In this document: positions 1 through 17,698 of the stretch, piece after piece
Position numbering within the stretch: the first letter of the stretch is position 1
How the letters are laid out: the number at the start of each line of letters is the position of its first letter
Assembly (NCBI GenBank): GCA_963830235.1
Contig: CAWHLR010000035.1
Span: 29,838-93,837 of the forward strand
DNA from: an uncultured Verrucomicrobiae bacterium
GTDB taxonomy: Bacteria; Verrucomicrobiota; Verrucomicrobiia; Limisphaerales; UBA11358
Length of the DNA: 64,000 nucleotides
Direction: 5' to 3'
Position numbers and translations under genes: made by a program
Notes under the pieces: generated by a model
The model's input: the letters and a program-made list of their open reading frames with translations, nothing else
Told to the model about the DNA's origin: nothing
Database searches by the model: none

Positions 1-285
1 TACCCTGTCCATTGTGATGCCGATCCTGAACGTGCGGCTTTGCTTTCGCTGAAAAAGCAATTTCGCCACGAGGATAAAGATGAGGATAAAATGACCATCC
101 GCGAAGTTGCGGAATATCTTGCCTGGGAGAAAACCTTTAAAATCGGCGACTCCGTAAAATCTAATTTTCCAAAAGTGGAAACGCCCGCTGATGGCTTTTC
201 AGCTCTGCGGAGAAAATGCCGTGAGATGGATTTTCCATTGGCTCCCTCGAAACGGAAACCGGCTCGGCCCGTCAAATCAAAGTGA
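1..285 (+). CDS. small island protein, 5'-partial; paralog of 543..905
   Basis: The frame is open from base 1; the ORF track starts it at TTG 40. The C-terminal ~45 aa align with 543..905: TIREVAEYL vs TIRQVAQFL, and PADGFSALRRKCREMDFPLAPS vs PADGFSALRRKCREINFPLAPS. Confidence 0.5.
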   Translation, partial: YPVHCDADPERAALLSLKKQFRHEDKDEDKMTIREVAEYLAWEKTFKIGDSVKSNFPKVETPADGFSALRRKCREMDFPLAPSKRKPARPVKSK

Positions 286-500
286 AAAAAGCCAAATCCA
301 AGCCTACTCTGCGAAGCTCGACGGTGAAGCAAATCATCGCCCTTGTCAAAAAGGGTGACAGTTCTGAGGCGGAAATCATTGCCAAATATGGAAGACCCCT
401 TACTTTCGCCGAACGTTTTGCCAGGCATTATTACAATGCTCTCGACGAAGTTCAGGCAGCCGAACGCGGTAAAACGACTTGCCTTCCTTTTCCATCTTAA
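282..500 (+). CDS. hypothetical 72-aa protein
   Basis: The GTG start overlaps the upstream stop (GTGA at 282-285), suggesting translational coupling. No domain recognised. Confidence 0.4.
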   Translation: MKKAKSKPTLRSSTVKQIIALVKKGDSSEAEIIAKYGRPLTFAERFARHYYNALDEVQAAERGKTTCLPFPS

Positions 501-542
501 AGGCACGAATTTGATATTAAATCGTCTGAAGAAGTAAGGGCG

Positions 543-905
543 TTGTGGAAAAAACTTCAAGATAAAGAACGATGCATGGCGGGGATTTTAATAAATGCCA
601 TGAACAGCCACGACAGCGAAATGGTCATGGCTCTCGCCAGAGCGGTTAGTTTTTTCAAGGATAAACGCTATCCGAAGTTTGTCGCCGAAGATCGGGAACG
701 CACCATTTTGCTGGGCATGAAATCACTTATGGAAAGGACGGGCGAAAAACTTACAATCCGGCAGGTCGCGCAATTTCTTTCGATGGATGAATTATCGGCG
801 GGGAAAAAACTTGAAGTTCCGGCGGATGGCTTTTCGGCACTCCGCAGAAAATGCCGTGAGATAAATTTCCCGCTGGCACCATCAAGAAAAATAAGTCGAA
901 CGTAG
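543..905 (+). CDS. small island protein; paralog of 1..285
   Basis: 120-aa ORF sharing the C-terminal PADGFSALRRKCRE-x-FPLAPS block with the first ORF. Confidence 0.5.
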   Translation: MWKKLQDKERCMAGILINAMNSHDSEMVMALARAVSFFKDKRYPKFVAEDRERTILLGMKSLMERTGEKLTIRQVAQFLSMDELSAGKKLEVPADGFSALRRKCREINFPLAPSRKISRT

Positions 906-1001
906 TTCTTCAAATTCTTAAATAAATCAGCAGGCGGGTATTAAGGTCATCAACGTGTAGGGCAACGCAGTTAAACCAGTTGACTCTGCACAGTTGATAC
1001 C

Positions 1002-1235
1002 ATGAGTGAATTAACATCGCAGACCGAGAAACAAAGCCCGCTGGTGACACGTTACGTTGACGCACCCAAGCTGCTTGAAATTCTTTTCGATGAAGCCAGC
1101 CGTCCCAGCCTCCGCTGGATTCGGGACCAACAAAAAGCCAGACGGCTGCCTTTTGCAAAAATTGGCCGTTTAGTTTTTTTTGATCCCATCGCTTGCAAAG
1201 CCGCGCTCGACGCCAAAGGTGCCGGTCGGAGATAA
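1002..1235 (+). CDS. AlpA/excisionase-type helix-turn-helix DNA-binding protein
   Basis: 77 aa. The segment RRLPFAKIGRLVFFDP fits the HTH_17/excisionase pattern. It sits directly upstream of the replication gene, as in P4/PICI-like islands. Confidence 0.6.
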   Translation: MSELTSQTEKQSPLVTRYVDAPKLLEILFDEASRPSLRWIRDQQKARRLPFAKIGRLVFFDPIACKAALDAKGAGRR

Positions 1236-1270
1236 TTTCACCACTTTCTCACCTTCGCCGAGATAAACGG

Positions 1271-2578
1271 ATGAACATTTCCCCATTAGAACCGGCAGGC
1301 CAGAATCCGCTCGCCGTTTTGAGTTTGCAACCGAAACGCGCCGACGCGGTTTATTCGCAGATCGAATGGACGGCCCTTTGCGAGCATCTTCATAATGAAA
1401 ATGACTCTACGCATTTCGTCATGGGATTTCGTGACAACGAAGGGTGCAAAAAATATGTTCGCAGTAAAAAGTTGCCGGTTGGACGGGCAATCTCATGGAG
1501 CTGGGGAAGCATCGCCGGTTCGCCGAAATCCCGTTTGGCCTTTGTCCCCTATTCGGTCAACGCCCAGCAGCAATCGCGTTGGGGCGGGATGGACTTTGAC
1601 GCCCACCAGCCCGACCAGGTTGACAGGGCGCGGGAATTGGCATTTGCCGCTTTCCGGGTATTGTTGAACACTCCCGGTTTTGCCGTGATTCTGGAAACAA
1701 GCGGCAGCGGTGGCTGGCATGTCTGGGCGATCTCGCCGGACTTTCATCCGGCTGGCGAATGGATTCGGGTGCTGAAAACGGTTGCCCTGACCATCGGCAC
1801 AATCATCACCGCCGGCGTCTGCGAAATCTTTCCACCCGATAGTCTGCCGTCTCGTTTCGGCAAAGGAATGCGCGCCCCCGGGAGTTGGAATCCAAGCACG
1901 GATAAATTCAATGAAATCGTCTGGGAAAATTGCCGCACTTCCCTTGAGCCAGTCCTATCGAGGAAGTCAAAAAATACCCCCTTGATTTGCAACGGTTTAG
2001 AAGCTCACTTCCCCGATACAGAGAAAAAAGATTCTTTCTCTCCTCTTTCTTTTTCTAATCCTGTCATCTTGGACCTCCTTCAAAAATATCGGATTGACGT
2101 GTCAAATACTCGTAATGACCAGCTCGCTTCATTAACCGGTGCTGCTTTTCATCAATTAGGCTTCACTATGGCGAGACAAACAGCGCAGGCTCAATTTCAG
2201 CGCAAGTCTGTTTCTACCGAGGCCAGTGAGCAGAAGCACATGGCGAGTTTTGATGATTTGTGGTCCGGGCTCATGGAAAGTTGGGTATCCAGTCTTTCAG
2301 ATTCCGAGCGACAATTTGTTGCCCGGCTGGAAACTGACAAAGAGCGCGATGCGTTTCGGATTGTGCGAAGCTTTGCCCGCAAAGCCGAGCAAGATGGCGC
2401 GGCGGATTTTCCGATTGTGCGCGACAATTTGGCATCCCGGTTGGGCATAACCGGCAAAGGCGCGGCGGGGATTCGGGATAAGCTCGCCCGGTTGTGTGCC
2501 ATTTCCAAGACTGTGGATTATGTCCCGAATAAATCCGCGGCCCGTTTCAAGTGGCTGCTCCCAAAATCATTCAAATGA
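1271..2578 (+). CDS. primase-polymerase (prim-pol) type replication protein
   Basis: ATG 1271 (MNISPLEP) chosen inside ORF 1193..2578. GGMDFDAH (DxD) and ILETSGSGGWHVWAI resemble prim-pol catalytic motifs. The C-terminus looks like a winged helix. The stop overlaps the TerS start (ATGA 2575-2578). Confidence 0.65.
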   Translation: MNISPLEPAGQNPLAVLSLQPKRADAVYSQIEWTALCEHLHNENDSTHFVMGFRDNEGCKKYVRSKKLPVGRAISWSWGSIAGSPKSRLAFVPYSVNAQQQSRWGGMDFDAHQPDQVDRARELAFAAFRVLLNTPGFAVILETSGSGGWHVWAISPDFHPAGEWIRVLKTVALTIGTIITAGVCEIFPPDSLPSRFGKGMRAPGSWNPSTDKFNEIVWENCRTSLEPVLSRKSKNTPLICNGLEAHFPDTEKKDSFSPLSFSNPVILDLLQKYRIDVSNTRNDQLASLTGAAFHQLGFTMARQTAQAQFQRKSVSTEASEQKHMASFDDLWSGLMESWVSSLSDSERQFVARLETDKERDAFRIVRSFARKAEQDGAADFPIVRDNLASRLGITGKGAAGIRDKLARLCAISKTVDYVPNKSAARFKWLLPKSFK

Positions 2579-3183
2579 ATCTCCAAACTGCAAATCACCC
2601 ATTTGAACAACTGCCGCGAGAGTCAAACAAGGCATTCGCCGCGTTCAAGGCATACCTGGACATGGGGCCGGAACGGTCCATAGCTGGCGTTAGCCAGACG
2701 TTAGCCAAATCAATGCCTTTTCTGAAAAGGTGGTCGGTGAAATTTGACTGGCAGGGGCGGGTCGCGGCGTGGGATGCCCATTTTGCCGAATTGGAACGGC
2801 AGGCCATCGAGCGGTTGGCCTGCGAAAAGGCGGTGGAATGGTGGCAATTGCACGAGCCAGCCAAGCGGCAGGCGTGGCTGGAGGCCGAGGAGGCGATTGC
2901 CGACGTTCGGGAGGCACGGCGGCGCTGGCGAGCATCAGGGCGGGTGCCTGGCTTTGAAGGCATGGCGCGGATGCTGGAACTGGCGTTCAAGCTCAAGCAG
3001 TTCGCCGCCGGGATTCCATCGGAGATCAAGGAGGTGCATCAGCACGTCACCGGCACGGTGTCGGTGGAGTGGGAGCAAGCCATCCGCAAAGCCTACGGTC
3101 TACCCGACGATGCGCCGATTGTGGAAGTCGAGCCGGTGGTGCCTCCGGCGAAGCTGGAGGATGGCAAAGGGGGCCAGCCATGA
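2575..3183 (+). CDS. terS: terminase small subunit
   Basis: 202 aa with an N-terminal HTH-like segment (SNKAFAAFKAYLDMGPERSIAGVSQTL) and a coiled-coil middle. It lies immediately upstream of TerL, with an ATGA overlap at 3180-3183. Confidence 0.6.
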   Translation: MNLQTANHPFEQLPRESNKAFAAFKAYLDMGPERSIAGVSQTLAKSMPFLKRWSVKFDWQGRVAAWDAHFAELERQAIERLACEKAVEWWQLHEPAKRQAWLEAEEAIADVREARRRWRASGRVPGFEGMARMLELAFKLKQFAAGIPSEIKEVHQHVTGTVSVEWEQAIRKAYGLPDDAPIVEVEPVVPPAKLEDGKGGQP

Positions 3184-4578
3184 ACGAAGCCGCCGTTTTT
3201 TCCGCCGCCGGCATGAAAGCGGGGTGTCCGCCGTCGCAACTGGTCCGGCTGGTTCACGCCGACGCTTTCCTGCACGAGCGGCAGCTTATGGCCTGTGCTG
3301 CCGCCCGGCTGTGCGACCATGCCGGCGGGCCGACGGCCATCGGTTACGGCGGGGCGCGCGGCGGCGGCAAATCTCATTGGCTGCTGGCACAAATGGGGGT
3401 GGACGATTGCCAGCGCGTCGCCGGCTTGAAATGCCTGCTGCTCCGCAAAGTTGGTAAAGCAAATTTGGAACACTTCGAGGACTTGCGCCGGAAGCTGTTT
3501 AACCGGCTGCCACACGAGTTCTCAGCGTTCCGTGGCATCCTGACGTTTGCCAATGGCTCCCGCATCATTGCCGGCCATTTCCAGAATGAGAAGGATATTG
3601 ATGCCTATCTCGGCCTGGAATACGACATCATCGGGATCGAGGAGGCCACGACGTTGACCAGCCGGAAATACCAGGACATCACGACCTGCTGCCGTAGTTC
3701 AAAACCGAACTGGCGTCCGCGCATCTATTCGACCACCAACCCCGGCGGCGTGGGCCATGCTTGGTATCGGACGAAATTCATCGTGCCATTTCAAGAAAAA
3801 CGCGAGATGGAAACGCGCTTTATCCCCGCCCGTGTCACTGACAATCGCTGGAACAATCCTGATTACGTCCGGGTGCTGGAGGGTTTGACCGGCTGGCAGA
3901 AACGGGCATGGCTGGATGGCGATTGGGATATTGCCGCCGGCCAGTATTTCTGCAACTTTCACCGCGAGGTTCATGTCGTCGAGGATTTCGACGATTCGCG
4001 GGCGGTTGAATGGTTTGCCGCACTGGATTACGGCCATGTGCATTACACCGTCTGCCTGCTCGGGTGTCGGGATGGCGACGGGAACACGTTCGTCGTGGAT
4101 GAACACGCGGAGCGGCTTTGGCTGCCGCAGCGCCACGCGGCGGCGATCAAGGCGATGCTGGCACGGCACAAAATCGGCGACCGGAAACTGGCCGTTCGAG
4201 GATCTCCGCCGGTTCGTGGCCGGCGCGGATGTGTTTTCCCGCCAGGGCGACGGAACCACCGTCGCGCAACAATACGAACGGCAGGGAATCCGGCTGCGCG
4301 CAGCCAACATGGACCGCGTGAATGGCTGGGCGGAAATCTTGCAGCGGTTCGGCGATGTCGAGGCCGGGATTCGCCCGACGCTTTTCATTCACAAGCGGTG
4401 CGGGCGGCTGCTCGAAACGCTGCCGGCGTTGCAACATGATCCGAACCGGCCTGAAGATGTCTTGAAGGTGGATTGCGACGAGGACGGCATTGGCGGCGAC
4501 GATGCGGCGGATGTCCTACGCTACATGGTGGCGACGAAATCGCGGGCGATCACGCAACGAAAGTTGCGGGGGTTGTAG
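3180..4578 (+). CDS. terL: terminase large subunit, interrupted by one frameshift near 4185-4200
   Basis: Walker A-like GGARGGGKS, acidic IGIEEAT, and NPGGVGHAWY. The C-terminal nuclease part (FVAGADVFSRQGDG ... DRVNGWAEIL ... DDAADVLRYM) continues in the frame of ORF 3916..4578. Confidence 0.85.
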
Positions 4579-4591
4579 TGTTTGTTTTCAT

Positions 4592-4637
4592 AGGCAGATT
4601 ATAACACTCGGCGCGTCATTGCGCCCAGCATCTGCCT
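4592..4637 (+). terminator. candidate stem-loop downstream of terL
   Basis: AGGCAGAT (4592-4599) pairs with ATCTGCCT (4630-4637) and encloses an inner GGCGC/GCGCC stem. The T-run at 4649-4653 is distal, so this is not a canonical terminator. Confidence 0.35.
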
Positions 4638-4695
4638 TCTCATCCAATCTTTTTAGGCGTTGCGACTGCGACTTGATCCCGAAAAACGCTACGAC

Positions 4696-4956
4696 CTACT
4701 TAGCAAGAATCAGAACTGTAGATCCCGATCTTAGCATCGTCGATGTTCTTACTTTCCACCCGTCCGCTCCGAGTGTATTCAACTGCGCTTCGAGTTGTTG
4801 CGCTTCCGAAATTTCTTGGCAGTTGATAACTTTGTAATGTTCTCCTCCACTGAGTTCGGCTGCTTGAGTCTGACGAGGCAGAAGCGTGAAGCTGGAAATG
4901 ATGACTGCGATACCAAGTGTTGCAGCAATTAGGATTGCTTTTATTTTTGTTTTCAT
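4696..4956 (-). CDS. membrane-anchored DUF4177-like protein
   Basis: N-terminal hydrophobic segment. The C-terminus YKVINCQEISEAQQLEAQLNTLGADGWKV...VLILAK fits the DUF4177 pattern (YKV...LN.LG.eGWel...). Confidence 0.55.
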   Translation of the reverse strand: MKTKIKAILIAATLGIAVIISSFTLLPRQTQAAELSGGEHYKVINCQEISEAQQLEAQLNTLGADGWKVRTSTMLRSGSTVLILAK

Positions 4957-5330
4957 ATGTTTGGCTTTTTCTGGTTAGTTTTCGTTTTTTTGAGGTTATT
5001 GCGCTGGGCGTGTAGCATACGCCTAACATTGTTATCATGCCACAGAGCATTCCCGACGGCATGCACGGCTGACTTTTCTATCTGTGGCATGTGTCATAGG
5101 GTTATGAAAGCGGACTTGCGAATTACTGTCAAAGATAATTCGCCGGTTGAAATGGAGTCCAGAGGTCGTTGACCTTTGGCGCGGTCTGGTGCGCGTAACA
5201 CTAGCGCCGGGGTTTGGGGACGGCGTGAGTCCCCAACAACATTGGCTGCGCGGCTGACGACCATCAAAGGCGTCAGCCGCGAAAAATTTTGCGCCCGGCG
5301 CGGTGGCGTCGGGTGCAAGTTGTGTGTCGG

Positions 5331-5732
5331 TCAATCTTCGTCCGGCATCATCACGGTGATGGCGGGTTGCGGGTCGTCCATGTCGAGCGGGCCACAAGTG
5401 GCGATCAACTTCACCAGCTTGGCGCGGTGGTTGTCGTTGCGGACATACATGGCGACGGGGATGCGGTCGCAACCTGGGCGGCTGCGGATGATTCCGAAAC
5501 GGGTCATCCAGACAATATCCCAAAGGCGTCCGGCTTCATCCTGACCGGTCACGCCTTCCGGCACGGCGACGTAAGCATCAAAAACCGTGCGGGTCAAAAA
5601 CATCGGGAATTTGATGCCCGCCTCTTGCGCGGTCTTGGTCACGTCAACCTGCACGCCGTCGGCGACGGCTTGTGCGCGGGTGTAGGCGTAAATGACAGGG
5701 CCGAATGGTGATTCTTGGTTGTTTGTGTTCAT
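5331..5732 (-). CDS. conserved small MGE protein of the type I recall from conjugative-element leading/antirestriction regions
   Basis: 133 aa. FGPVIYAYTRAQAVADGVQVDVTKTAQEAGIKFP...DEAGRLWDIVWM matches a family I remember next to ArdC-like genes. This is a recollection only and was not checked against a database. Confidence 0.55.
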   Translation of the reverse strand: MNTNNQESPFGPVIYAYTRAQAVADGVQVDVTKTAQEAGIKFPMFLTRTVFDAYVAVPEGVTGQDEAGRLWDIVWMTRFGIIRSRPGCDRIPVAMYVRNDNHRAKLVKLIATCGPLDMDDPQPAITVMMPDED

Positions 5733-5777
5733 AATCGGGTAAAGGAATGGGGCGGCTTGAACCCGCCCCGGTGTAAA

Positions 5778-6194
5778 TCACGTGGGGCGCACGTCGGCGG
5801 GGAAATAGCTGGAAAACTTCTGGTGCGGGTCGGTCTGGCTGCCCAAACGGAACACTCCGCACGGGTGCTGCCATGCCTGCCGCTCGCGGTTCCAATGGAA
5901 ACCAAGCTGCGCCAACTGCTGCCGCAACTCCGGCGCGGGTGTCTCGCGGAACGCAACCCAAATCCACCTGCCGACAACCTCGGCGAGATTGAACAAACCC
6001 GGATTGCTGGTTTTCAAAAGTTCCAAAACTTTGGTGATAGGCAAGGTGCGGTTTTTCTTCCGCGCCTCGGCATCAATCGGCAAACGATTGTCCGGCTTCT
6101 GCGCTGGCGCTTCCGCTGCTGCGGTGTTGTTACTACTCAACTGTGCGGATCTGCTCCCGAGCCCCTGAACCGATTTTTTGTTATTTGTTTTCAT
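5778..6194 (-). CDS. conserved small MGE protein (GFHWN...WQHPCG C-terminal motif)
   Basis: ATG 6194 (MKTNNKK) chosen inside ORF 5778..6539. EVVGRWIWVAF...LAQLGFHWNRERQAWQHPCG is a motif I recall from ICE/plasmid accessory regions. It forms an operon with 5331..5732. Confidence 0.5.
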   Translation of the reverse strand: MKTNNKKSVQGLGSRSAQLSSNNTAAAEAPAQKPDNRLPIDAEARKKNRTLPITKVLELLKTSNPGLFNLAEVVGRWIWVAFRETPAPELRQQLAQLGFHWNRERQAWQHPCGVFRLGSQTDPHQKFSSYFPADVRPT

Positions 6195-8122
6195 GGTCTT
6201 TTTTTTACTGCTCTGCTGTGCGTCTTCTGTCCGTCGCCCTTCACGAAAAAGCGGAGCCGCCAGCCCTCCCTGCGGAAGGAATCCATAGGAAGGTCGCCGC
6301 GTAGGGCGGGCTGGTATTGCGGTGACGCCGTGAGGGCGATGGAGAGAAACGGTGAGCAGAAAAAACCGGACCTGAAAACTTGGCAGCGCCACTTGCTTTA
6401 GCGCCGCCCCCTGGGGATGGAGGGGGCAAAGGCGCAACGGGGTGGGTGGGGGATTTGGGGAAGCAGACCCGGCTGGTCGTTTCACCTCGGCGCTTGGCGT
6501 GAACGGATGCCTGCGAACTGGCGCGCTGGCTGCCCGCACGAGCGCGAAGGTGCGGATTAGCAGTCAGCGTGACAGTGAAGCAGCGGTGCTGCACACAACG
6601 GCACATTGTGCGACCCTTTATTCCGTGCAGAAGGGCACCCGCGAGCGGGGAGTGTCTGCACGAAAAGAATAAAGGTGTGGAACGAGGAACGAGTGGAACG
6701 AACGCACAATGTGTGTTGTGTGAACCACCGGAAGCAAAGCCGACGCCCAGCCTCGGAACGCAGTGAGAAGCGTAGCGTCGGCTGGTCCTTCATGCCAACT
6801 GCGCCGCCATTGGCCAATCTTTTGCCGGGTCTGCGGTTCTTGCGCCGGTGCGAGCAGCCGCGTCCGCACAGCACGGGCGCTCTGACCTGAAGCGGCAGTC
6901 TGCGACCAATCGTGCAGGCACAGACGCGCAGGAACGAGCATCGTAGCCGAAGCCATTGGTCGCAGTCTGACGCGCCGTTCGTTTGGCGAGTCGCGCCAGC
7001 GCGAGTGCGGCTTGTTCTGACTCCTGAGCGAGTGCTGTTTACGGTCACATGGAGCGCAAGGGCTGCTGCTGCCAGGGTAACAGGGAGCAGCAGGCAGACA
7101 GTGCGCGGAGAGTGACGCTCAGGTGTCAGACCAATTTGGTTTTATCAGTGAGGTCGGACATTCTTCCGGGCGGCGAAATGGAGCGCCAGCGGAGAGTAGC
7201 GTCCGGAAAATGGCCGTGCTCACGGTTAATGCCGATTGTCTTGGCCGGGCGGAGCCTCGCGGCCTATTGCGGTGTCTTGCCCCGTGCGAAGCATCGCGGG
7301 CTATTGCTGGTCCTGGCCGGACGAAGTCTCGCGGCCAACCGGCGCAATCGGATTGCGATATTGCTGGTTCATGTCGGGCGGAGCCTCGCGACATCCTGCT
7401 GGTGTTTCTTGGGTGCGCCCGATCTGAGGCCGGTCTCGTCTGTTTGCGGCCGTCGGAACAAAGCGATAGCGCTCCGCCGGTGCGAGCCGCACCTGCCTTC
7501 GGCGGATCGCGGCAGCGGAGTGGAGCGGTCTGCAAAGCTGGCGAGTCCGGCCAGGGCGCGGGCGGAACAGTGCCGATACTTGCCACGAACGTTTTCGTGG
7601 AAGCGTCGGCTCTGTGAAGCCTGGACTGCTGTTTTGCGCCGCGATAGCGGCGTTGCCAATTTCTTTTCTTCCGCGAAGCGGCCATCTTTTCTTTTCATGC
7701 CTGACCCTCGCGCCCTGAAACCGTTGGAAAACCTGGACGGTTGGATTGCTCAAGAGACATTCGATGAAGATGGGTCGTCCAACGTGCGCGCGAGGGTAGC
7801 CCAAGCGCCGCCGGGGATGACGTAGTAAAACCCGTGAAGGCGGCGCGGTGCCGGCGGGTGGGGCCGGGGATGACGTTGGTGGCATGAGGCGCGTTGGATT
7901 ACCTGAAAACTTTCGCCGAAGCCGATGACAGCCCCACCCGACGTGCATGGGCGTCAGGCATACGCGCGCACGGCCATGACGCTGGCAAATGGATGCCTTT
8001 CGACGTGTGGGCGCATCGTAGGTTGTTGAGCACGCGAATGGAGTGCAGCGCGAACCAAAGTTTCGTTGAGCGAAGCGAACCAACTTTGTCTTTGAAGGAC
8101 GAACGAGGTTGAAGGTTATTAA
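6195..8122. other. ~1.9 kb ORF-free, hairpin-dense GC-rich region; candidate structured RNA, ssDNA element or origin
   Basis: Only R/P/C/G-rich shadow ORFs overlapping in all frames. Multiple long complementary stems, G-tract clusters and tandem repeats (see findings). Confidence 0.5.
7237..7402 (+). repeat. four tandem degenerate ~36-nt hairpin units, with a possible fifth to 7441
   Basis: U1 7237-7272 is TGTCTTGGCCGGGCGGAGCCTCGCGGCCTATTGCGG. U2 7273-7310 is TGTCTTGCCCCGTGCGAAGCATCGCGGGCTATTGCTGG. U3 is 7311-7367 and U4 is 7368-7402. Each unit has a GGCCG..CGGCC-type stem. Confidence 0.6.
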
Positions 8123-10000
8123 TTAATTCTCCTTCAGAAATTCAACCAGGCGGGACATGGATCGCTTCAGGTCTCGCTGCCTTCCTATCTGGACACCTTT
8201 TTTAATCTGAAGGCAAATATGATCGTAATTGGGTCCCTTTAATAGGTCATCATATTGCGAATAAATGTTTTTTGATTTGGGCAGTTGTATCCCCATCAGC
8301 AATTTTGAAATGGAATGTAGCAGAAGAAACGCATCCTCGATCATTTCAAAGGTGATTTCCTCGAACATCTCAACCGCATTATTACCTTTCGTGCAATACC
8401 ACTTTTCACAATAGCTGACGAACCGATTTTCAAACGCATCCTGAAAGGAAAAATCACTTTGAAGTTGGCGGGCAATCAATGCCGCTAACGTCCACTCCGC
8501 CGGCCCCTTGAAATCCTTCTGTTGTTTAATCAGCCGGTCACCGATACCGCGCCATCTGGCTTTACTGTCATAGGATTCCTCGATCATCTTTTTCAACCAG
8601 TAGGCAAATTTGCACCGGTTATGTGATGGGTCTTGGATTTCCGGAAAAATAACCGGGAAATACTTTCCAAAAATATCATTAGTTCCCTGTTGGCTGATGA
8701 ATGGGTTCTGCCTTAATACCGCCGCGATACAACGTGCGAGTTTATCGGCATCAAGCCAAAAATATTTCCGCTTGGCATCTTGTTCCTCTTTGCTGACAAC
8801 CTGTTTTTCACCCTGTTTCCTCAAAAGGTAATATTTTCTTTCAGAATCCTTCAGTTTCTCGGCGAAGAGTCTGTGAAAAAGTGTCACCATCATGGGGTGG
8901 TTTGACTTCAAATCGCGATTATCGACAGGATTTTGATTGTTACGCGCAATGGCGACTTCAGAAGATATATTGGCCGCATCCTTTTTCAGTTCGATGACGG
9001 TAACAAAAACTTGGGCATTGGGATTGGCGCCTTCATTTTCACAAAAGTAGCGGTCAATATTCATTACGGTCTGACAGCCGTTGCTTATGGAGGCTCGTTC
9101 CAAAAAAATATGGTCGTCATTGAGCGTTGCCTTGCTGCATTGCATGGTCACGCCATTATTGCACACGATGAACTGTTCGGGCTTCTGGCTGATGGTCATC
9201 CGGATTGCCTCGGCGATCTCCTTGCTGCGTTTCTTGACGTTTAGGTAACTGCGCACGTTCGAGGCAAAAAGCGCCTTCAACTTCTTTTCCTTCCTGTGGG
9301 CCTGAATAATCTCGTGAATATTTTTTAGAACGACCGAAGTAACAAAAACCTGACCATAGTCGAAGGTCAATTTAAGCGGCGACTCATGGAACTTGAGCTT
9401 GAATGAGCTCATTCCGGTCTGACCATCCAAGAATTCTTCGCCGCGCTCCAGAAGTTCCTCATTTGTAAAAAAGTCATAATCTTCCAGCTTTGCATTTTTT
9501 CGGATGCGTTCACGTTGTGGGCCACTAAAATGTTTTGGCGTCACGAAGTAATACCGTGGCGAGTAATGCTCCTGGGTGATCAGCATCTTTGCCCGCCGCC
9601 ATGCTGACCGTGCCGGTTCATGCAACGCTTCAGGCAGAGAATCTTCAAACAAATACTTATAAAATTGAGCGAATGTTTCGGTAGCTTTCGCCTCGTTGGC
9701 TGGTGATTTATTCCAGTTGCCCGCATCGTATTCGACCTGTCCAACCAAAACTTTTTTGCTTTCTTTATCCTGCCAGATGAAATCAACGCCGCAATCATTC
9801 GCCTCATCAAGCACACATTGATTTGCCTCATCGTAAGGAATGCCGACTTCCTGATGGAGGAACCAAATCGCGAGTGCCTGGGCATCGCCAAGCACCGAAT
9901 TCCCGGATGCACGCCCGGATTGAGTTATGATCCGCTCCAATTCCTCTTTCAGGAACTGGATGAGGTGATCAGTTTCATATTCTTGGCTGGCAAATGACAT
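8123..10000 (-). CDS. AIPR-family abortive-infection protein with an N-terminal nuclease-like domain
   Basis: FIVCNNGVTMQC and ISNGCQTVMNI fit the AIPR pattern. The N-terminus DCGVDFIW...VLVGQVEY resembles a PD-(D/E)xK core. ATG 10000 preferred; alternative start at 10045. GC is markedly lower than the flanks. Confidence 0.8.
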   Translation of the reverse strand: MSFASQEYETDHLIQFLKEELERIITQSGRASGNSVLGDAQALAIWFLHQEVGIPYDEANQCVLDEANDCGVDFIWQDKESKKVLVGQVEYDAGNWNKSPANEAKATETFAQFYKYLFEDSLPEALHEPARSAWRRAKMLITQEHYSPRYYFVTPKHFSGPQRERIRKNAKLEDYDFFTNEELLERGEEFLDGQTGMSSFKLKFHESPLKLTFDYGQVFVTSVVLKNIHEIIQAHRKEKKLKALFASNVRSYLNVKKRSKEIAEAIRMTISQKPEQFIVCNNGVTMQCSKATLNDDHIFLERASISNGCQTVMNIDRYFCENEGANPNAQVFVTVIELKKDAANISSEVAIARNNQNPVDNRDLKSNHPMMVTLFHRLFAEKLKDSERKYYLLRKQGEKQVVSKEEQDAKRKYFWLDADKLARCIAAVLRQNPFISQQGTNDIFGKYFPVIFPEIQDPSHNRCKFAYWLKKMIEESYDSKARWRGIGDRLIKQQKDFKGPAEWTLAALIARQLQSDFSFQDAFENRFVSYCEKWYCTKGNNAVEMFEEITFEMIEDAFLLLHSISKLLMGIQLPKSKNIYSQYDDLLKGPNYDHICLQIKKGVQIGRQRDLKRSMSRLVEFLKEN

Positions 10001-10136
10001 ACAATCAATTTTCTTTCGGTTTTCAGGTTCCCGTCGAAACACCACTCATCTTATTTTGGGATGATTGATTATCGTAAATGTCTGTTTCCACAATACAAAT
10101 AAAATCATTGGGCGAATTTTGAATTGGAAAAATTTT

Positions 10137-10158
10137 GGGGTTGGGGGGGGCAGGGGGG
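10137..10158 (+). repeat. G-tract cluster (G4, G8, G6) between the divergent AIPR and portal genes
   Basis: GGGGTTGGGGGGGGCAGGGGGG read directly from the sequence. Confidence 0.8.
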
Positions 10159-10308
10159 CGAATTTGGTAAAATACTTCTTTCGATCTTCTTGGATATGTG
10201 GAAACAACCGGCGGGAAAATGAAATAACGTGCAACTAAGTGCATAAGTCGTTGACAATCAATATGTAACACTTGACGAAACGCTGGTTGTGGAATAAATA
10301 GGTCTTAA

Positions 10309-11832
10309 ATGCCCGTGCATTCCACACATCCTGATTATGACGCCAGCCTCTCGGCCTGGCTGCGGGCTCGCGATGTCTTTGCCGGTGAGGATGCCATCAA
10401 GGCCGCTGCTGAAAAATATCTGCCGCGTCTGGATTGTCAGGACGACAAGGAATATCTCGCCTACAAAAATCGCGCCTCCTTTTTCAACGCCTCGGCCCGC
10501 ACGGCGGATGGTTTCGTCGGCCTGATTTTTCGCCGTGATCCAACATTCAAACTGCCGGACACCGGCACCGGTGTAGGCGATGCGCTCACCGAATTTGTGG
10601 AAGATGCCGACATGTTGGGAACCAGCCTGACTGCCTTCTCGAAAAAACTGGTCACGGAAATTATCAATGTCGGTCGTGCCTGCACGCTGATTGACTGGAA
10701 CGAGGAAGCGGAGCAACGCGCCTATGCCGTTGCCTATTCCGCTGAAGACATCGTCAATTGGCACACAGAACGGGTAAATGGCCGCAACGTGCTGACGCTG
10801 GTCGTCCTCAAGGAAATCAGCAAAATGCCCGCTTCGGAAACTGATCCGTTCGTGCCTGATGAAATCCAGCAACTTCGCGTTCTGAAACTCGTCCCGCCGC
10901 AAACCAAAGCTGAAAACGCAAAAGCTGACTGGTCTTACCAGGTAGAAATCTGGCAGTTCCTTGCGGATGGCCAGAATGCAAGCGGCCCTCGCAATCGCGG
11001 CAAAAAGAAATGGAAATTGGTGGACTCCTTGACACCGCTGCGCCTGGGCAAACCTCTGCCGCTGATTCCCTTTGTCTTTCATGGTCCGCGTCACTCCTTG
11101 CCGGAAGTGGATAAAATCCCGCTGGCAGACATCATCGCCGTCAACCTCAACCATTACCGGCTCACAGCCGACTATTTGCATGGGATGCATTTCACCGCAT
11201 TGCCGACGGCCTGGGTGAGTGGATTTGACAAAAATTCTTCGCTTCGCATCGGCTCTAGCACGGCATGGGTCGCTGAGACGCCCGGCGCGACGGCTGGTTT
11301 TCTGGAATTTCACGGTCAAGGTCTGACGACCTTTGAACGGGCAATGGATCGTGATGAGCAACTCATGGCGGTGCTCGGCACACGGATGCTCGAATCCAAG
11401 AAGCGCGTTGGGGAGACCGCCGCTGCCATCGAACTCCGCCAGAGCGGTGAGAACAGCATTTTGAACACCGTGTCTTTGAGCATCAGCGCCTCGCTGACGC
11501 AAGTGCTGCGCTGGGTTTATTGGTGGAACTCCACCGAACCGATTCCTGATGCCATTGGTCCCGACCTTGTGCTCGCCAGCCTGAACACGGATTTCAGCAT
11601 CACCGGAATGTCGTTTCAAGAAATTACGGCACTGGTCGCCGCGTGGCAGGCGGGCGCCATTAGTCAGGCAACCATGCTCGACTTATTCCGCGCCGGTGAA
11701 GTTATCGCTCCTGGCCGCACGAATGAAGAAGAAATCAAACTGCTCGCCAGCGAGAAACCAACGAAGCCGCCGGTCGCGGTCAAACCGCCGGTGTCGGTGG
11801 CGACGACTGCAAACCCTCAACCGATAACCTGA
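10309..11832 (+). CDS. portal protein
   Basis: 507 aa, placed directly before the scaffold and capsid genes. Size, position and sequence pattern are consistent with DUF4055-type portals (from memory). Confidence 0.75.
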   Translation: MPVHSTHPDYDASLSAWLRARDVFAGEDAIKAAAEKYLPRLDCQDDKEYLAYKNRASFFNASARTADGFVGLIFRRDPTFKLPDTGTGVGDALTEFVEDADMLGTSLTAFSKKLVTEIINVGRACTLIDWNEEAEQRAYAVAYSAEDIVNWHTERVNGRNVLTLVVLKEISKMPASETDPFVPDEIQQLRVLKLVPPQTKAENAKADWSYQVEIWQFLADGQNASGPRNRGKKKWKLVDSLTPLRLGKPLPLIPFVFHGPRHSLPEVDKIPLADIIAVNLNHYRLTADYLHGMHFTALPTAWVSGFDKNSSLRIGSSTAWVAETPGATAGFLEFHGQGLTTFERAMDRDEQLMAVLGTRMLESKKRVGETAAAIELRQSGENSILNTVSLSISASLTQVLRWVYWWNSTEPIPDAIGPDLVLASLNTDFSITGMSFQEITALVAAWQAGAISQATMLDLFRAGEVIAPGRTNEEEIKLLASEKPTKPPVAVKPPVSVATTANPQPIT

Positions 11833-11841
11833 AACTGATTT

Positions 11842-12603
11842 ATGGCCCTGAAATACAAATACGCAACGAAGCAGGAAATTCCTGCTGAACATCAATCCCT
11901 TTATGTCGAACGCGACGGCGCTTGGATACTGGACGCCGATGGCATCACAGACAAATCCAAGTTGGATGAATTCCGCACGACCAACGTCGCGCTGATGAAA
12001 GAGCGTGATGACCTCGCCAAGAAGTTTGAAGGCATTGACCCGGATGAAGTCCGCCGGCTCGCCGATGAGAATCGTTCCCTGCGGACGGCAACATTGAGCG
12101 AAGACGCCAAGCGCGAAATGGATGCACAGTTGAAAACCACGAAGGCGGGTTATGAAAAGCAACTTACTGCCGTGACTTCTGAACGCGATGCGCTGCATGG
12201 TCGCCTGACGGCGATTCAGATTGATCAAGCCGTCGTGAATGAAGCAACCAAACGTGGTCTGCGCCCGACGGCGATTCCTGACATTACTTCGCGGGCGCGC
12301 ACGAATTTCAAATTAGTGAACGGCGTTCCTCAAGCTTTCGAGGCGGACGGCCAGACGGCCCGGATGGGCAAGGATGGCGTCACGCCGATGACTTTGGCCG
12401 AATGGGTGGATGCGTTGGTGTCCGACGCACCGCACCTGTTTGAAGCAAATGCTGGTGGCGGTGCCGCCGGCTCCGGCTCCGGTGGGGCTGGCAACCGGTC
12501 CGTGAAAAATCCGTTCCGAAAGGAAACGTTCAATCTCACGGAACAAATGAAAATTCAAAAATCCGATCCACAACTTGCGGCTCGCCTCAAGGCGGCTGCG
12601 TAG
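11842..12603 (+). CDS. capsid scaffolding protein
   Basis: 253 aa, charged and coiled-coil-rich, with a Gly-rich C-terminus. Located between portal and MCP. Confidence 0.6.
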   Translation: MALKYKYATKQEIPAEHQSLYVERDGAWILDADGITDKSKLDEFRTTNVALMKERDDLAKKFEGIDPDEVRRLADENRSLRTATLSEDAKREMDAQLKTTKAGYEKQLTAVTSERDALHGRLTAIQIDQAVVNEATKRGLRPTAIPDITSRARTNFKLVNGVPQAFEADGQTARMGKDGVTPMTLAEWVDALVSDAPHLFEANAGGGAAGSGSGGAGNRSVKNPFRKETFNLTEQMKIQKSDPQLAARLKAAA

Positions 12604-12626
12604 GATCACAAGCACAATTCTAAATT

Positions 12627-13637
12627 ATGGCTAAAACACAATTGGCTGACATCGTTGTTCCGGCGCAGTTCGCGCCGTATGTATTACAGCGCACGGCGGA
12701 GAAATCCGACCTGTTTCAATCCGGCATTGTCGTGCGAACGCCGGACTATGACGAACGCGCTGCGCAAGGCGGCAACCAGGTCAACATGCCGCATTGGAAT
12801 GACCTGACGGGCGACCGCCAGCCACTTTCCGATTCGTCACCGCTCGTGCCGGCGAAGCTCACGGCGGATCAGGACATCGCCCGCATCCATAACGACGGCA
12901 AGGCGTGGTCGTGGAATCACCTGGCAACCTTGGTCTCTGGCGATGATCCGGCGCTGGCGCTGGCCAACTTCATGGCCGATTACTGGAATCGTCAGAACCA
13001 ATACATGCTCATTAGCTCCCTGAAGGGTGTGTTCTCGGCGGCTTCGATGGTCGGCAACCTGTTGGCGATTCACAGTGAAAGTGTCGCCGCGCAAACGGCT
13101 GCGACCCGGCTCAACGGTGCAACCTTCGTGGATGCGACGCAAAAGCTTGGCGACCGTGGCGACCGGCTCGTGGCCGTGGCGATGCACTCGGCAACCGAAG
13201 CCGCGTTGCGGAAACTCGATCTGATTGACTTCATCCCGGACAGCCAGGGTGAAGCGCAAATCCGCACGTTCCAGGGCCGGCGCGTCATCGTGGATGACGG
13301 TTGTCCGTCGCGGGCGGGCACGACCGATGGCTTGGTCTATACAAGCTACCTGTTCGGCCCGGGCGCGTTCGGCATGGGCTTCGACGATCTGAACGGCGCG
13401 CCCGTCGAGGGTGGTTTCGGCACGCAAGGCTGCGAAGCGGCGCGTGACGCTCTCAACAGCGATACCAACCTGATCAACCGCCGCCGGTTCATCCTGCATC
13501 CTCGAGGTGTGAAGTTCACCAGCGCGAGCGTGGCGGGCGCAAACCCGACAAACGCGGAATTGGAAACGGCCGCAAATTGGGTGCGCGTTTGGGAAAACAA
13601 AAACGTCCCCGTCGTGGCGGTCACTCACAACATCTAA
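12627..13637 (+). CDS. major capsid protein (HK97-fold; resembles the N4-gp56/T7-like coat family)
   Basis: 336 aa. N-terminus MAKTQLADIVVPAQFAPYV.... Position after the scaffold fits a coat protein. Confidence 0.75.
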   Translation: MAKTQLADIVVPAQFAPYVLQRTAEKSDLFQSGIVVRTPDYDERAAQGGNQVNMPHWNDLTGDRQPLSDSSPLVPAKLTADQDIARIHNDGKAWSWNHLATLVSGDDPALALANFMADYWNRQNQYMLISSLKGVFSAASMVGNLLAIHSESVAAQTAATRLNGATFVDATQKLGDRGDRLVAVAMHSATEAALRKLDLIDFIPDSQGEAQIRTFQGRRVIVDDGCPSRAGTTDGLVYTSYLFGPGAFGMGFDDLNGAPVEGGFGTQGCEAARDALNSDTNLINRRRFILHPRGVKFTSASVAGANPTNAELETAANWVRVWENKNVPVVAVTHNI

Positions 13638-13688
13638 ACCAAAGGCGTGCCGGTTCGCGCCGGCACGCCACTTTTGAGAAAGAAATTT

Positions 13689-13916
13689 ATGGGCAAACTT
13701 CAACCTCGTAGTTTTGAGCGGATTCGTTCGGGTGAACAAATCCAGTATCCGACATACACCAACGTCGCGGCGGCGGTGGCCGCTGGTGTCACGGCGGCGA
13801 AGTTCCCGCGCCGCATCATTTACCTGTCTGCCGGCGGCACTGGTTCGGTTCCGTGCCTGGCCGTTTCGGACGGCACGAACTGGAAACAAGTCGCCATTGG
13901 CGCAAACGCCATTTAA
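13689..13916 (+). CDS. small head-module protein, hypothetical
   Basis: ATG 13689 inside ORF 13647..13916. 75 aa, co-oriented and directly after the MCP. Confidence 0.45.
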   Translation: MGKLQPRSFERIRSGEQIQYPTYTNVAAAVAAGVTAAKFPRRIIYLSAGGTGSVPCLAVSDGTNWKQVAIGANAI

Positions 13917-13927
13917 CCGCAGCCATC

Positions 13928-14128
13928 ATGGACAAATTGTTTCCCATTATACGGCGGCAGCGGCGTCCTCTGATTGTCGAGGAGTCCGTGCCGGACGGGC
14001 CAACAGCACCGCCTATTCCGATCAAGACCGAGCCGGTTCAATCCGTGATGACAACGCCACCGGTTGAACCGGCGGATGAACCAAAAGCCGACAATGCCAA
14101 AAGCATTTCCACAAGAAAAGCGCGGTAA
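13928..14128 (+). CDS. Pro-rich 66-aa hypothetical protein
   Basis: ATG 13928 inside ORF 13853..14128. Low-complexity sequence. It overlaps the next ORF, so coding status is uncertain. Confidence 0.3.
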   Translation: MDKLFPIIRRQRRPLIVEESVPDGPTAPPIPIKTEPVQSVMTTPPVEPADEPKADNAKSISTRKAR

Positions 14129-15008
14129 CTCACCCTGGACGCCACTGCAACGGCGCACTTGGCTGGCGGAACGTCGCCGCCGCTCGCGGCAAAATCATTT
14201 GCTGCCCGCGCCGGTGCTGGTGGCGGCTTTTCCCGACCTCGCGGTGTGGACGTGGGATTATCCCGACCCGGCTTACTGGTATGCCTATCATCAGCACGCG
14301 GTGGGCGATCCTTTTACTTACGACGACCGTGGCGCTGGGACTGACCGCCAGTATGCGCCGGACGGCGGGCAGTATCCGATGTTCATTGTTGGGTGTGATA
14401 ACGACGGGAACGAGATCACGGGGCGGAGCAATGCGGTTCGTCCTGAAGATGCGCTACCACCTGCCCCTGTCTTAGTTTCGCTGGGAACGGTCGCCGGCGA
14501 TACTACCTGGCGGGCAGTCGCCCCGATAGCTGTGGATGATTGGCAATTTTGCACGACAGATAATGCTTTTGACCCTCAAATTAAAAGTTTTGATCAATGG
14601 GTGTATGAGGCGGACGCGCCGGACACAGATTTCGTCAATATAAATTCCACGACTGCCACCGTCACAGTGGACTTTGCTTATTGCGCTGCCCGCTATCGGG
14701 TCGGGGCAATCTGGTCGTCTTGGACGGGAGTCTTCGATGCAACTGTGATCGCGCCGCCGACACAGTTGGTTTTATCCTCGGATGGCCACGGGCATTTGAC
14801 CTGGACCTGCAACTTCATCGTGGACACGGCCTTCATCATCCAGCATTCGGAAGATGAGGTCAATTGGAGCGATTACGATGCGCAGGACTGCGACAAATTT
14901 TATCGGGACTCCAGCGGATATGCGGGTTTCTACCGACTCGCGATTGGGGATGATGATGGAAACGCCGCGCCGCCCTACTCGAATGCGGTGTATTCGGATG
15001 GTTTGTAA
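14064..15008 (+). CDS. hypothetical structural protein; possible Ig/FN3-like decoration protein; start uncertain
   Basis: 314-aa ORF with a repeated PAPVLV segment and beta-rich W/Y/D composition, in the head module. No motif recognised. Confidence 0.45.
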   Translation: MNRRMNQKPTMPKAFPQEKRGNSPWTPLQRRTWLAERRRRSRQNHLLPAPVLVAAFPDLAVWTWDYPDPAYWYAYHQHAVGDPFTYDDRGAGTDRQYAPDGGQYPMFIVGCDNDGNEITGRSNAVRPEDALPPAPVLVSLGTVAGDTTWRAVAPIAVDDWQFCTTDNAFDPQIKSFDQWVYEADAPDTDFVNINSTTATVTVDFAYCAARYRVGAIWSSWTGVFDATVIAPPTQLVLSSDGHGHLTWTCNFIVDTAFIIQHSEDEVNWSDYDAQDCDKFYRDSSGYAGFYRLAIGDDDGNAAPPYSNAVYSDGL

Positions 15009-15013
15009 TTTTT

Positions 15014-15568
15014 ATGGCGCTCACCTTGATCAAAGAGGACGGGACCGGCAAGGCCGACGCCAACGCATACGCGGACGTGGCCGATGGTGACGCCTACCAC
15101 GCCGGGCATCTGTATGCCACGGCGTGGACCGGCGCGAGCGCGGATCAAAAGGCCGTGGCATTGGTGATGGCGTCGCGGTTGATTGACGCGGAATTTCAAT
15201 TCAACGGCACGCGGACCACGGCCGGACAAAGCCTGCAATGGCCGCGGGCGATGTGCCCCGAGCCGGACAATGTCCATGTGCCGATCTCGGTGCTGTTGCC
15301 GATTCCGTATGAATACGTTGAATATGACAAGGTGCCGAAAGCCGTCGTCCAGGCGACGTGTGAAATGGCGCGGGAACTTTTGATTGCCGACAGGACGGTC
15401 GCCCCAGCGGGTGAAGGCTTGAAATACCAGAACGCCGGCACGACGCAGACGGGTTACGACAAAACCGACCGGCGCCCGGTGCTTTCACAAGTCGCGCAAG
15501 TGATGCTGGCGAAATTTGGATCCCAAATCAGCGCCAAAAGCGGCGCGGTGCGACTGGTGCGGGCGTGA
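15014..15568 (+). CDS. head-tail adaptor (DnaT-like / gp6-like family)
   Basis: 184 aa. N-terminus MALTLIKEDGTGKADANAYADVADGDAYH... fits the DnaT_2-type phage adaptor pattern. It is the last co-oriented gene of the module. Confidence 0.55.
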   Translation: MALTLIKEDGTGKADANAYADVADGDAYHAGHLYATAWTGASADQKAVALVMASRLIDAEFQFNGTRTTAGQSLQWPRAMCPEPDNVHVPISVLLPIPYEYVEYDKVPKAVVQATCEMARELLIADRTVAPAGEGLKYQNAGTTQTGYDKTDRRPVLSQVAQVMLAKFGSQISAKSGAVRLVRA

Positions 15569-15632
15569 AAATGAATATCGGTATGGATCAGTTTAAAAAT
15601 CCTAAACGCTACGATGCGAGCGGAACGGCTCG

Positions 15633-16578: not shown

Positions 16579-16909
16579 GGCGATTTTGGGCTATAAATCC
16601 GTGAGTGCAAACGACTATGGAATTATTATTCTTGTCAAAAAACCAAAAAACCCTCGCACCGCCTTTTGCGCAAAATTCCCAAAGCGGTTTGGCCTGTTTT
16701 CCGTGTAGAGGTTTTGTTTTTTGTCCATTTGGCACTATCCCGTGTTTCTTTGCTCTATCAAATAATGCAATTAATTGGTTATAATCTTCAGCACGAGTCA
16801 CGTCGATCTCTTCCAAAAACGATTCCACATCATACTTCGGCTGGTCGCAATCCATGAACAGCAATCTGATTGCGTTTCCACCGTCACCTGTATATTCGAC
16901 CAGTTTCAC
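16487..16909 (-). CDS. HigB/Gp49-like (RelE superfamily) toxin
   Basis: RVFWFFDKNNNSIVVCTHGFIAQNRHDHKKDIERAQERRELYY fits the Gp49/HigB pattern. Confidence 0.65.
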   Translation of the reverse strand: MKLVEYTGDGGNAIRLLFMDCDQPKYDVESFLEEIDVTRAEDYNQLIALFDRAKKHGIVPNGQKTKPLHGKQAKPLWEFCAKGGARVFWFFDKNNNSIVVCTHGFIAQNRHDHKKDIERAQERRELYYHSQPRTGAAASR

Positions 16910-17689: not shown

Positions 17690-17698
17690 TCGCCCTTT

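Follow-up and report, generated by a model that had tools for sequence, protein, structure and literature searches.

The gene-free gap at positions 6195–8122 of the DNA analysed here (a window of 64,000 nucleotides from an uncultured Verrucomicrobiae bacterium, contig CAWHLR010000035.1) is non-coding, and base pairing within it is maintained by compensatory change along its whole length. The gap runs from the ATG of a gene for a 138-aa protein (6194, minus strand) to the stop codon of an AIPR gene (8123, minus strand), and it is set in a phage-type head module which, from Pfam and PHROG matches, has the order terS–terL–[gap]–portal–scaffold–major capsid–head-tail adaptor, with terS and terL being the small and large terminase genes. 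In our reading, which we regard as probable, the gap holds a conserved structured nucleic acid, most likely an RNA of the + strand, comprising three modules: a long hairpin (B1), a core made up of a G-rich leader and domains 2–5, and a final domain 6 (Table 1). Of these, the core would act in trans as a large ornate RNA. Among the large ornate RNAs of phage-type elements it appears to represent a new class, with no relation to those described so far, which are about half its size and from which covariance-model scans set it apart.

The non-coding status of the gap is evident from comparison with its closest relatives, the loci L002 (91% identity over 1.94 kb) and L001 (86%). Mismatches show no codon periodicity (51/41/51 by codon position against L002 and 57/62/61 against L001), and indels are mostly of 1–2 nt, about half of them being of a single nucleotide (17 and 27 indels in the two comparisons). 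Open reading frames (ORFs) reaching 260 aa exist in the GC-rich gap, and the three longest have no Pfam match. The description of the region as ORF-free in an earlier note, made from the sequence alone, is borne out in this sense, and the decayed gene which that note had set against its own proposal of a structured element is rejected by the pattern of substitutions and indels. Stop-codon recoding was also considered and is ruled out, since each of TAA, TAG and TGA is present in all six frames of the gap, with the single exception of TAG in one minus-strand frame. Moreover, the third positions of codons 1–25 of the 138-aa gene are no more conserved than the rest; in other words, the constrained element does not extend into the coding sequence.

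Conserved versions of the stretch are present in over 150 loci, drawn from Verrucomicrobiota metagenome-assembled genomes (MAGs), IMG/VR contigs and peat, bog and lake metagenomes. With the 138-aa protein as query, 93 loci were recovered (13 IMG/VR contigs and 80 MAG loci), the MAG sources being mostly named as Verrucomicrobiae, subdivision 3 or Limisphaerales and often containing several copies per genome. The gap sequence is recognisable in some 75 of these 93 loci, with each of the blocks B1–B6 found by profile searches in 56–76 loci. A metagenome scan made independently of the protein, using a 24-base motif of domain 2, gave at least 120 JGI contigs with the same layouts, for which the habitats (peat, fen, bog, humic lake) are taken from the contig names. 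A 15-base conserved motif run over IMG/VR returned mostly chance matches and no further element-bearing contigs, and blastn of the region against phage and plasmid collections (72,556 plasmids) returned no match. The structured region is conserved even though the proteins of the elements share merely 45–70% identity. Full-length units, measured from the G-rich leader to domain 6, number 76 when only distinct sequences are counted and range from 1116 to 2101 nt, with a median near 1480 nt, the unit in the window being 1729 nt long. Their address is fixed: in every case the element lies between terL and the portal gene.

On the + strand, the z-scores of minimum free energy (MFE), calculated in 200-nt segments, are −4.3 to −5.2 at 6200 and at 6400–6600 and are near 0 in the flanking coding sequence. 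An RNAalifold consensus of 25 copies projected on the window comprises 443 pairs, in which most helices are more than 90% canonical and many pairs are changed on both sides; across the 76 distinct full-length units there are 366 consensus pairs, with 90.0% of cells canonical and 209 pairs compensatory. For domain 2, the conservative consensus drawn from an alignment of 50 sequences (A1) contains 58 pairs, of which 35 are compensatory. Counted over 119 pairs of this domain, 89.4% of cells are paired, as against 77.3 ± 0.3% in 500 column shuffles and 28–46% in a slid control in which the 3′ partners are displaced; 79 of the 119 pairs have changed on both sides (55.6 ± 3.0 when shuffled), amounting to 624 such cells as against 193, and none of the 500 shuffles attains any of the observed values. 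The remaining blocks are 88–93% canonical as against 24–45% when slid: B1, with 65 pairs in 69 distinct copies, is at 90.0% (39–45% slid; 44 pairs compensatory), domain 3 at 88.5% in 56 copies (37–43%; 46 compensatory), domain 4 at 93.2% in 36 copies (32–42%), domain 5 at 92.8% in 51 copies (29–36%; 31 compensatory) and domain 6 at 90.3% in 59 copies (24–42%; 31 compensatory). Since the slid controls are low and the independent pair types many, chance pairing is untenable as an explanation.

Terminal loops include conserved GNNA or GNRA tetraloops (GCCA, GAGA, GUUA) and G-N-A triloops. Inverted repeats are found at 6584–6599/6715–6730 and 6602–6612/6703–6713, which make up the nested hairpin of ~130 nt, and at 6892–6910/6955–6973 and 7012–7030/7116–7134. 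The stems and repeats listed in the earlier note are all present, with shifts of at most 1–2 nt, in the repeat search and the consensus fold, its 9-bp stem being recovered in the latter as 6739–6746/6775–6782 and another of its stems as 7066–7072/7086–7093. The GGAACGA repeats at 6672–6701 (repeat family D17) lie in a variable loop, and the insertion at 6835–6975 aligns in only ~15% of 25 copies with a column identity of 0.14–0.25, L001 and L002 alone matching across it. Domain 6 holds a 14-nt direct repeat, GCCGGGGATGACGT, at 7810 and 7863 (D16). A K-turn was rejected on direct reading, there being no tandem G·A pairs.

Domain 4 deserves separate description. Each of its units consists of an outer stem, a 3′ UCG bulge, a 3-bp inner stem and a G-N-A triloop (GAA, GGA, GCA or GUA), the units being separated by linkers of the UAUUGC type. 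The four stems differ from one another within the same genome, and it follows that the domain keeps its pairing rather than its sequence. Three candidate identities were discarded on direct reading, namely a CsrA-type sponge (the loops of domain 4 are mostly GAA, not GGA), a type III toxin–antitoxin repeat array (no toxin gene lies downstream in the same orientation) and a mimic of CRISPR repeats (the spacing of 36–57 nt is wrong).

The same observations bear on whether the region is instead a double-stranded DNA site, such as a pac or cos site or an origin with repeated protein-binding sites, or else the remains of a decayed gene. Terminase genes are indeed close by, there are four repeated units at 7243–7393, and the terL of the window is frameshifted, such that this copy may be decaying. 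It is pairing, however, and not sequence that is conserved, as the differing stems of the four repeats in one genome attest, and contig ends are scattered, without the pile-up that would mark a fixed terminus. Nor is decay easily reconciled with a region which lacks codon periodicity, has indels of 1–2 nt and longest ORFs without Pfam matches, and is yet conserved across elements whose proteins are 45–70% identical. We regard a reading of this type as extremely improbable, and the origin or pac site suggested in the earlier note is not sustained.

The strand of the fold is indicated by its wobble pairs. In domain 2, conserved G·U pairs alternate with A-U or G-C at columns 73/514, 99/197, 230/404 and 242/393 of alignment A1; on the minus strand the same positions would be conserved A·C mismatches, and the + strand is favoured for this reason. 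In B1, U·G alternates with U-A or C-G at 6199/6368, 6202/6365, 6223/6349, 6225/6348, 6233/6340 and 6274/6299, with A·C being rare. When cells are counted at pairs which had been predicted without G·U, the ratio of GU to AC is 158:56 in B1 and 61:17 in domain 5. Folding energies lie in the same direction, with the MFE of the window copy at −944.7 kcal/mol for the + strand versus −816.9 for the minus strand (−98.1 versus −78.3 for B1 alone) and the Alifold energy at −871 versus −788. The + strand, on which B1, domain 2 and domain 5 fold, also carries terS, terL, the portal gene and the head genes. The broad proposal of the earlier note, a long structured transcript or an element of structured single-stranded DNA, is upheld by the covariation along the whole stretch, the wobble pairs favouring the + strand.

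Table 1. Modules of the structured element and the genes around it, in window coordinates.
Feature	Positions	Strand	Remarks
Small terminase (terS)	2551–3183	+	
Large terminase (terL), upstream flank	3180–4578	+	Pfam Terminase_6N
DUF6573 gene, usual partner of the 138-aa gene	5331–5732	−	Pfam PF20213, E = 6e-22
138-aa gene, start codon abutting B1	5778–6194	−	
B1	6192–6374	+	Single long imperfect hairpin (~180 nt)
G-rich leader	6395–6462	+	CCCCC/GGGGG hairpin, then four G-tracts (GGGG-N-GGG-N-GGGGG-N3-GGGG, G-quadruplex-like)
Domain 2	6463–6834	+	Multi-branched, closed by 6465–6473/6824–6832 and 6487–6507/6786–6807; hairpins 6511–6583, 6584–6730 (long, nested) and 6738–6783 (optional)
Lineage-specific insertion	6835–6975	+	Hairpin 6892–6910/6955–6973
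Domain 3	6984–7233	+	Small hairpin 6984–7008, long hairpin 7016–7130, conserved U-rich joiner CCAAUUUGGUUUUAUCAG, hairpin 7148–7223
Domain 4	7243–7393	+	Four short hairpins of one design; repeat families D1–D3 (7236–7410)
Domain 5	7415–7621	+	Long hairpin 7415–7559 with variable tip; hairpin 7561–7621, GAGA tetraloop in most relatives
Linker from domain 5 to domain 6, variable and an insertion hot spot	7622–7697	+	Two small GC hairpins (7633–7654, 7671–7681), then U-rich runs
Domain 6 (B6)	7698–8090	ambiguous	Multi-branched (7698–7703/7955–7960 and inner helices), plus 7964–8019
AIPR abortive-infection gene, low-GC cargo between structured region and portal	8123–10045	−	Pfam AIPR, 6e-32; PHROG Abi-alpha-like
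Portal protein, downstream flank	10309–11832	+	PHROG 145, E = 2.5e-115
Head-tail adaptor	15014–15568		

The modules are defined by the two gene orders in which the element occurs. Most loci, including that of the window, have terL, then DUF6573 and the 138-aa gene on the opposite strand, B1, the leader, domains 2–6, cargo in some cases, and the portal gene. In a minority, the leader and domains 2–6 come after terL; DUF6573 and the 138-aa gene are next, and B1 is then followed by either a single hairpin of domain 4 or domain 5, by a second complete domain 6 and by the portal gene. In both orders the core is invariably collinear and shares its strand with terL and portal, with the G-rich leader preceding domain 2 even where the unit directly follows terL, although in one subgroup the leader is replaced by, or combined with, an element ACACAAAAA...CGAGCNNNGCGAGC. 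Domains 2–5 were never found apart, and their order and orientation are strictly the same in all loci seen, though some domains go undetected in some loci. On account of these two orders, domain 6 is separable, B1 belongs with the 138-aa gene, and the leader and domains 2–5 form one collinear unit.

Modularity of this kind might also be expected were the region an array of independent small or medium-sized RNAs, for example B1, the domain 2–5 units and domain 6, rather than one giant RNA. B1 and domain 6 do change place or copy number without the core, the domains are each self-closed and joined to one another by few long-range helices, and variable linkers and insertion sites lie in between. 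The inseparability and strict order of domains 2–5 speak against such an array, however, as does the lack of promoter-like or terminator-like sites between them, and we hold it distinctly unlikely. Our preferred reading keeps the core as a single RNA, of ~1.2 kb (about 6395–7621) or of ~1.7 kb if domain 6 were included.

B1 adjoins the 138-aa gene in both gene orders, and the A-rich leader and start codon of that gene have their complement within the base of the hairpin. The basal ~50 bp of B1 are nearly invariant in sequence, with covariation seen in the apical part. By virtue of its complementarity to the leader and start codon, B1 is most simply regarded as an antisense or otherwise regulatory hairpin, and would act in cis on the 138-aa gene. 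In this respect the + strand of B1 is like P22 sar, lambda OOP and the antisense RNAs of the hok/sok type; unlike these cis-antisense RNAs, B1 exceeds typical antisense stem-loops in length and has, in most elements, another 1.5 kb of structure attached to it. At one locus (L233, 9752–10490) B1 is followed by a gene of ~245 aa which has only the N-terminal MKTxxxKK...SRSAQL (~20 residues) in common with the 138-aa protein, such that B1 and the initial ~20 codons behave like a portable unit of expression.

A long, imperfect hairpin that lies just in front of a small gene and folds on the template strand of that gene (here the + strand) is also the outline of an Frpo or ssi element, and an Frpo/ssi-like single-strand promoter had been offered in the earlier note. 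More widely, the structure could be one of single-stranded DNA, with B1 as such a promoter for the 138-aa gene and/or a single-strand origin in the region. Relatives of DUF6573 are common on conjugative plasmids, and C(GNA)G triloop hairpins, such as those of domain 4, are very stable in DNA too. Frpo elements, however, are defined by −35, −10 (and UP) elements rebuilt in the stem and by their location in a leading region (PMC11541004). The arms of B1 contain none of these promoter elements, their consensus being free of hexamers like TTGACA or TATAAT, and a promoter scan of 4400–10400 found none. The context is the head module of a tailed phage rather than a leading region adjacent to oriT, the region has no plasmid similarity, and B1 amounts to ~9% of it, the remaining 1.5 kb being multi-branched with GNRA-type tetraloops. 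In addition, we know of no single-stranded stage for elements such as these. Only the outline of B1 fits, in other words, and a function in single-stranded DNA is in our judgement very unlikely.

The genes next to B1 had been taken in the earlier note to be of a type found in conjugative leading regions. This stands for DUF6573, which is present on 198 plasmids, 128 of them typed as conjugative, and in one case lies in an array adjacent to a type IV secretion system; it does not stand for the 138-aa protein, which has no match among plasmids. The array in question (L333, Pseudomonas plasmid NZ_CP065413.1, 15387–15785) has DUF6573 as the second of 14 small genes on the same strand, 13 of them hypothetical, with ~900 nt of unannotated sequence upstream, and is consistent with an array of the leading-region type. 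A PDB search with DUF6573 gave nothing informative. For the 138-aa protein, Pfam, PHROG and PDB all lack a match, its 1319 homologues are all hypothetical where a source name is given, and its AlphaFold2 model, with a confidence score (pLDDT) of 62, has no significant Foldseek match.

Domain 6 appears to be associated with the insertion of other genes. The aligned stretch holding the linker between domains 5 and 6 (7612–7712) varies from ~55 nt to more than 1 kb among 76 copies and sometimes contains an inserted ORF; in L057, L075 and L077 this is a small ORF on the opposite strand, with a product starting MISNERPSPYGRRPY..., and in L045 the insert is a different one. Copies of domain 6 flank cargo in L024, L045, L057, L068, L073 and L075, and the domain occurs twice in many relatives (L038, L052 and L076 among them), either flanking cargo or after both the core and B1. 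It thus looks like a recombination or insertion boundary, or like a module which is needed after the core and before the portal gene, and in our scheme it would mark the boundary of a cargo-insertion hot spot. The site between domain 6 and the portal gene is such a hot spot, with all cargo on the strand opposite to the head genes. In the window the cargo is the AIPR gene, whose GC content of 0.44–0.47 compares with ~0.60 in the flanks; this gene is missing from most relatives, in which the same site carries other cargo or none. Cargo in L226 (4600–8700), L281 and L311 comprises a SEC-C/ParE-like protein, a type I restriction specificity subunit, a 23S-IVP-like protein and an HsdR fragment.

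The place of the element between two late genes raises a further alternative, in which it would be no free RNA but a cis-acting part of a long late mRNA, an intercistronic or leader segment serving the processing, stability, read-through or translation of the head genes and, during its own transcription, silencing the antisense 138-aa, DUF6573 and cargo genes. The element is on the strand of terL and portal and between the two in every locus, domain 6 is kept directly upstream of the portal gene whenever cargo or the gene cassette intervenes, and the start of the 138-aa gene is covered in antisense by B1, all of which this account would accommodate. It accommodates less readily the promoter-like motif which the portal gene has near its own start, and the cargo which in the window, L001, L002 and L019 separates the structured region from the portal gene without a second domain 6. 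Moreover, a multi-domain structure of more than 1.2 kb far exceeds any bacterial leader or antitermination element known to us. We consider a cis-acting function of this sort unlikely, albeit not negligibly so, and continue to favour a core that acts in trans.

Among the RNA families of Rfam, no counterpart was found. Rfam 15 gives no match at gathering thresholds over the whole window and, at E ≤ 10 over 5900–8400, only two matches of chance level (E 1.2 and 5.3). GOLLD, ROOL, OLE, HEARO, raiA, introns, packaging RNA (pRNA), RNase P and transfer-messenger RNA are excluded as far as covariance models see. Group I and group II introns were rejected in addition because no Rfam intron match appears at E ≤ 10, because terL and portal are separate, complete genes in relatives, and because no reverse transcriptase or homing endonuclease is present. 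Full-text literature searches found no published description of this element. Non-coding RNAs of more than 500 nt are, to our knowledge, very rare in bacteria and phages, and of the large ones GOLLD, ROOL and OLE form unprecedented RNA-only assemblies, the functions of which are still unknown.

The closest likeness is to GOLLD and ROOL, which are large structured RNAs of phages and prophages with members of more than 800 nt, GOLLD rising during lysis (bioRxiv 10.1101/2024.12.08.627333). In common with these, the present element is a very large, covariation-supported non-coding structure in a phage-type carrier, without a known protein partner and modular, with a variable and a conserved part. 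It differs in being roughly 1.5–2 times the length of GOLLD, in coming from Verrucomicrobiota of peat, bog and lake samples, in having a fixed site between terL and portal rather than beside tRNA islands (the window contains no tRNA gene anywhere) and in that no pseudoknots or palindromic kissing loops were detected in it. The second likeness is to the pRNA of phi29, also a phage-encoded structured RNA, the present element being found between genes of the packaging motor (terminase and portal); this position, together with the resemblance to pRNA, makes a role in the packaging motor or in assembly a natural hypothesis. The pRNA of phi29, however, is ~120–174 nt long, has its gene at the end of the genome distant from the connector gene, and serves phages whose ATPase is without a nuclease domain. 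The size difference is tenfold, there is no match to the Rfam pRNA model, and no covarying loop-loop pairs are found in the element.

The following scheme can be put together from these comparisons, in descending order of confidence. The element would first of all be an RNA of the + strand, which is the step we hold most firmly. Its core would be transcribed rightward, either along with the packaging and head genes or while these are expressed, and would act in trans as an RNA-only assembly or as a ribonucleoprotein scaffold, as has been proposed for GOLLD and ROOL. Its role would probably be in capsid assembly or DNA packaging, a step in which our confidence is least and which is suggested by the fixed place of the element in the packaging and head module. 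In its most specific form, the core would be a kilobase RNA subunit of the capsid-assembly or packaging machinery, made late and required for particle production or specificity, being either a pRNA analogue of tenfold size or a self-assembling cage of the GOLLD/ROOL type; we offer this version as a long shot.

Several considerations weigh against the scheme. The structures were predicted on the same MAFFT alignments as were used for the pair counts, and the sequences compared are related by descent, with pair statistics that ignore phylogeny. The strand signal is ambiguous for part of the element, the ratio of GU to AC being 85:68 in domain 3, 18:17 in domain 4 and 92:79 in domain 6, and folded single-stranded DNA also tolerates wobble pairs and GNA triloops, such that RNA, as opposed to single-stranded DNA, is a probable rather than a certain reading. 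Neither a convincing promoter nor a convincing terminator was found, a sigma-70 scan giving 0 sites on either strand of 4400–10400 and a terminator scan being at chance level; U-richness past 7621 is moderate (a T fraction of 0.31 versus 0.18 in the background), and other internal sites are equally U-rich. Across the 76 full-length units there were no stacked covarying pairs among unpaired columns, and no covarying pseudoknot or loop-loop contact indicative of a compact tertiary fold. The 138-aa and DUF6573 proteins gave no functional clue, and gene order is the sole basis for a role in packaging or assembly.

Some features of the flanking genes are recorded here in their own right. The terL of the window has one extra base near 4195 (4185–4205), reading GGCCGTTCGAGG where ~45 relatives have GGCCGT-CGAGG or an equivalent in the nucleotide alignment. 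A conserved programmed frameshift was considered and rejected, the extra base being in the window alone and the terL of L233 being an intact ORF of 465 aa. The window terL is thus a pseudogene or an assembly error and, since the insertion is absent from relatives, the window copy of the element may be defective or else misassembled at a single base. The start of the portal gene is preceded by a promoter-like motif, which in the window is TTGACG-17 nt-TAAATA (10265–10308) and in L006, L038, L071 and L076 is an extended −10-like GTGCTAnA; in several loci the motif is 6–10 nt from the portal start codon, a sign that the mRNA of this gene may be leaderless or almost so. Two clusters of G-tracts are able to form G-quadruplexes on the + strand, one in the leader (6407–6460, GGGGUGGGUGGGGGAUUUGGGG) and one upstream of the portal gene (10130–10160, TTTTGGGGTTGGGGGGGGCAGGGGGG), and L081 has a G-tract similar to the latter.

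As regards the host element, the adaptor is not followed by tail genes in the window (1–17700), nor is it in a relative of 40 kb (L335, 10000–20543). In the window the adaptor is followed by a repressor/ImmA pair and then by a defence island; no integrase was seen, and the match to a primase is weak. Given the lack of tail genes after the adaptor, and the several copies per MAG, the host may be a tail-less, capsid-forming satellite, similar to the capsid-forming phage-inducible chromosomal islands (cf-PICIs), or a family of defective prophages, rather than a complete phage. The island beside the head module is a defence-type, DISARM-like gene set (16072–29574) and includes a helix-turn-helix repressor with an ImmA/IrrE-like peptidase (16072–17689), a DUF1156 methyltransferase-like protein of 1083 aa (20690–23941), an AAA_21/AbiEii-type ATPase (24622–25824), a NOV_C-domain protein (25998–27551) and an SNF2 helicase (27490–29574).

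If the core is indeed a kilobase RNA of packaging or assembly, no larger structured RNA outside the ribosome would be known from bacteria or from their viruses. The family to which it belongs, of 1.1–2.1 kb, offers hundreds of natural variants with a fixed address between packaging-motor genes and with clear modularity, and its alignment is deep enough for structure modelling and for the design of constructs for cryo-electron microscopy. Moreover, the hot spot in which the element lies, with DUF6573, the 138-aa gene and cargo of abortive-infection and restriction-modification genes, couples the RNA to the defence and anti-defence biology of a poorly studied phylum. More generally, large gene-free gaps in the phage-like elements of uncultured bacteria can hide conserved RNAs which are missed by annotation.

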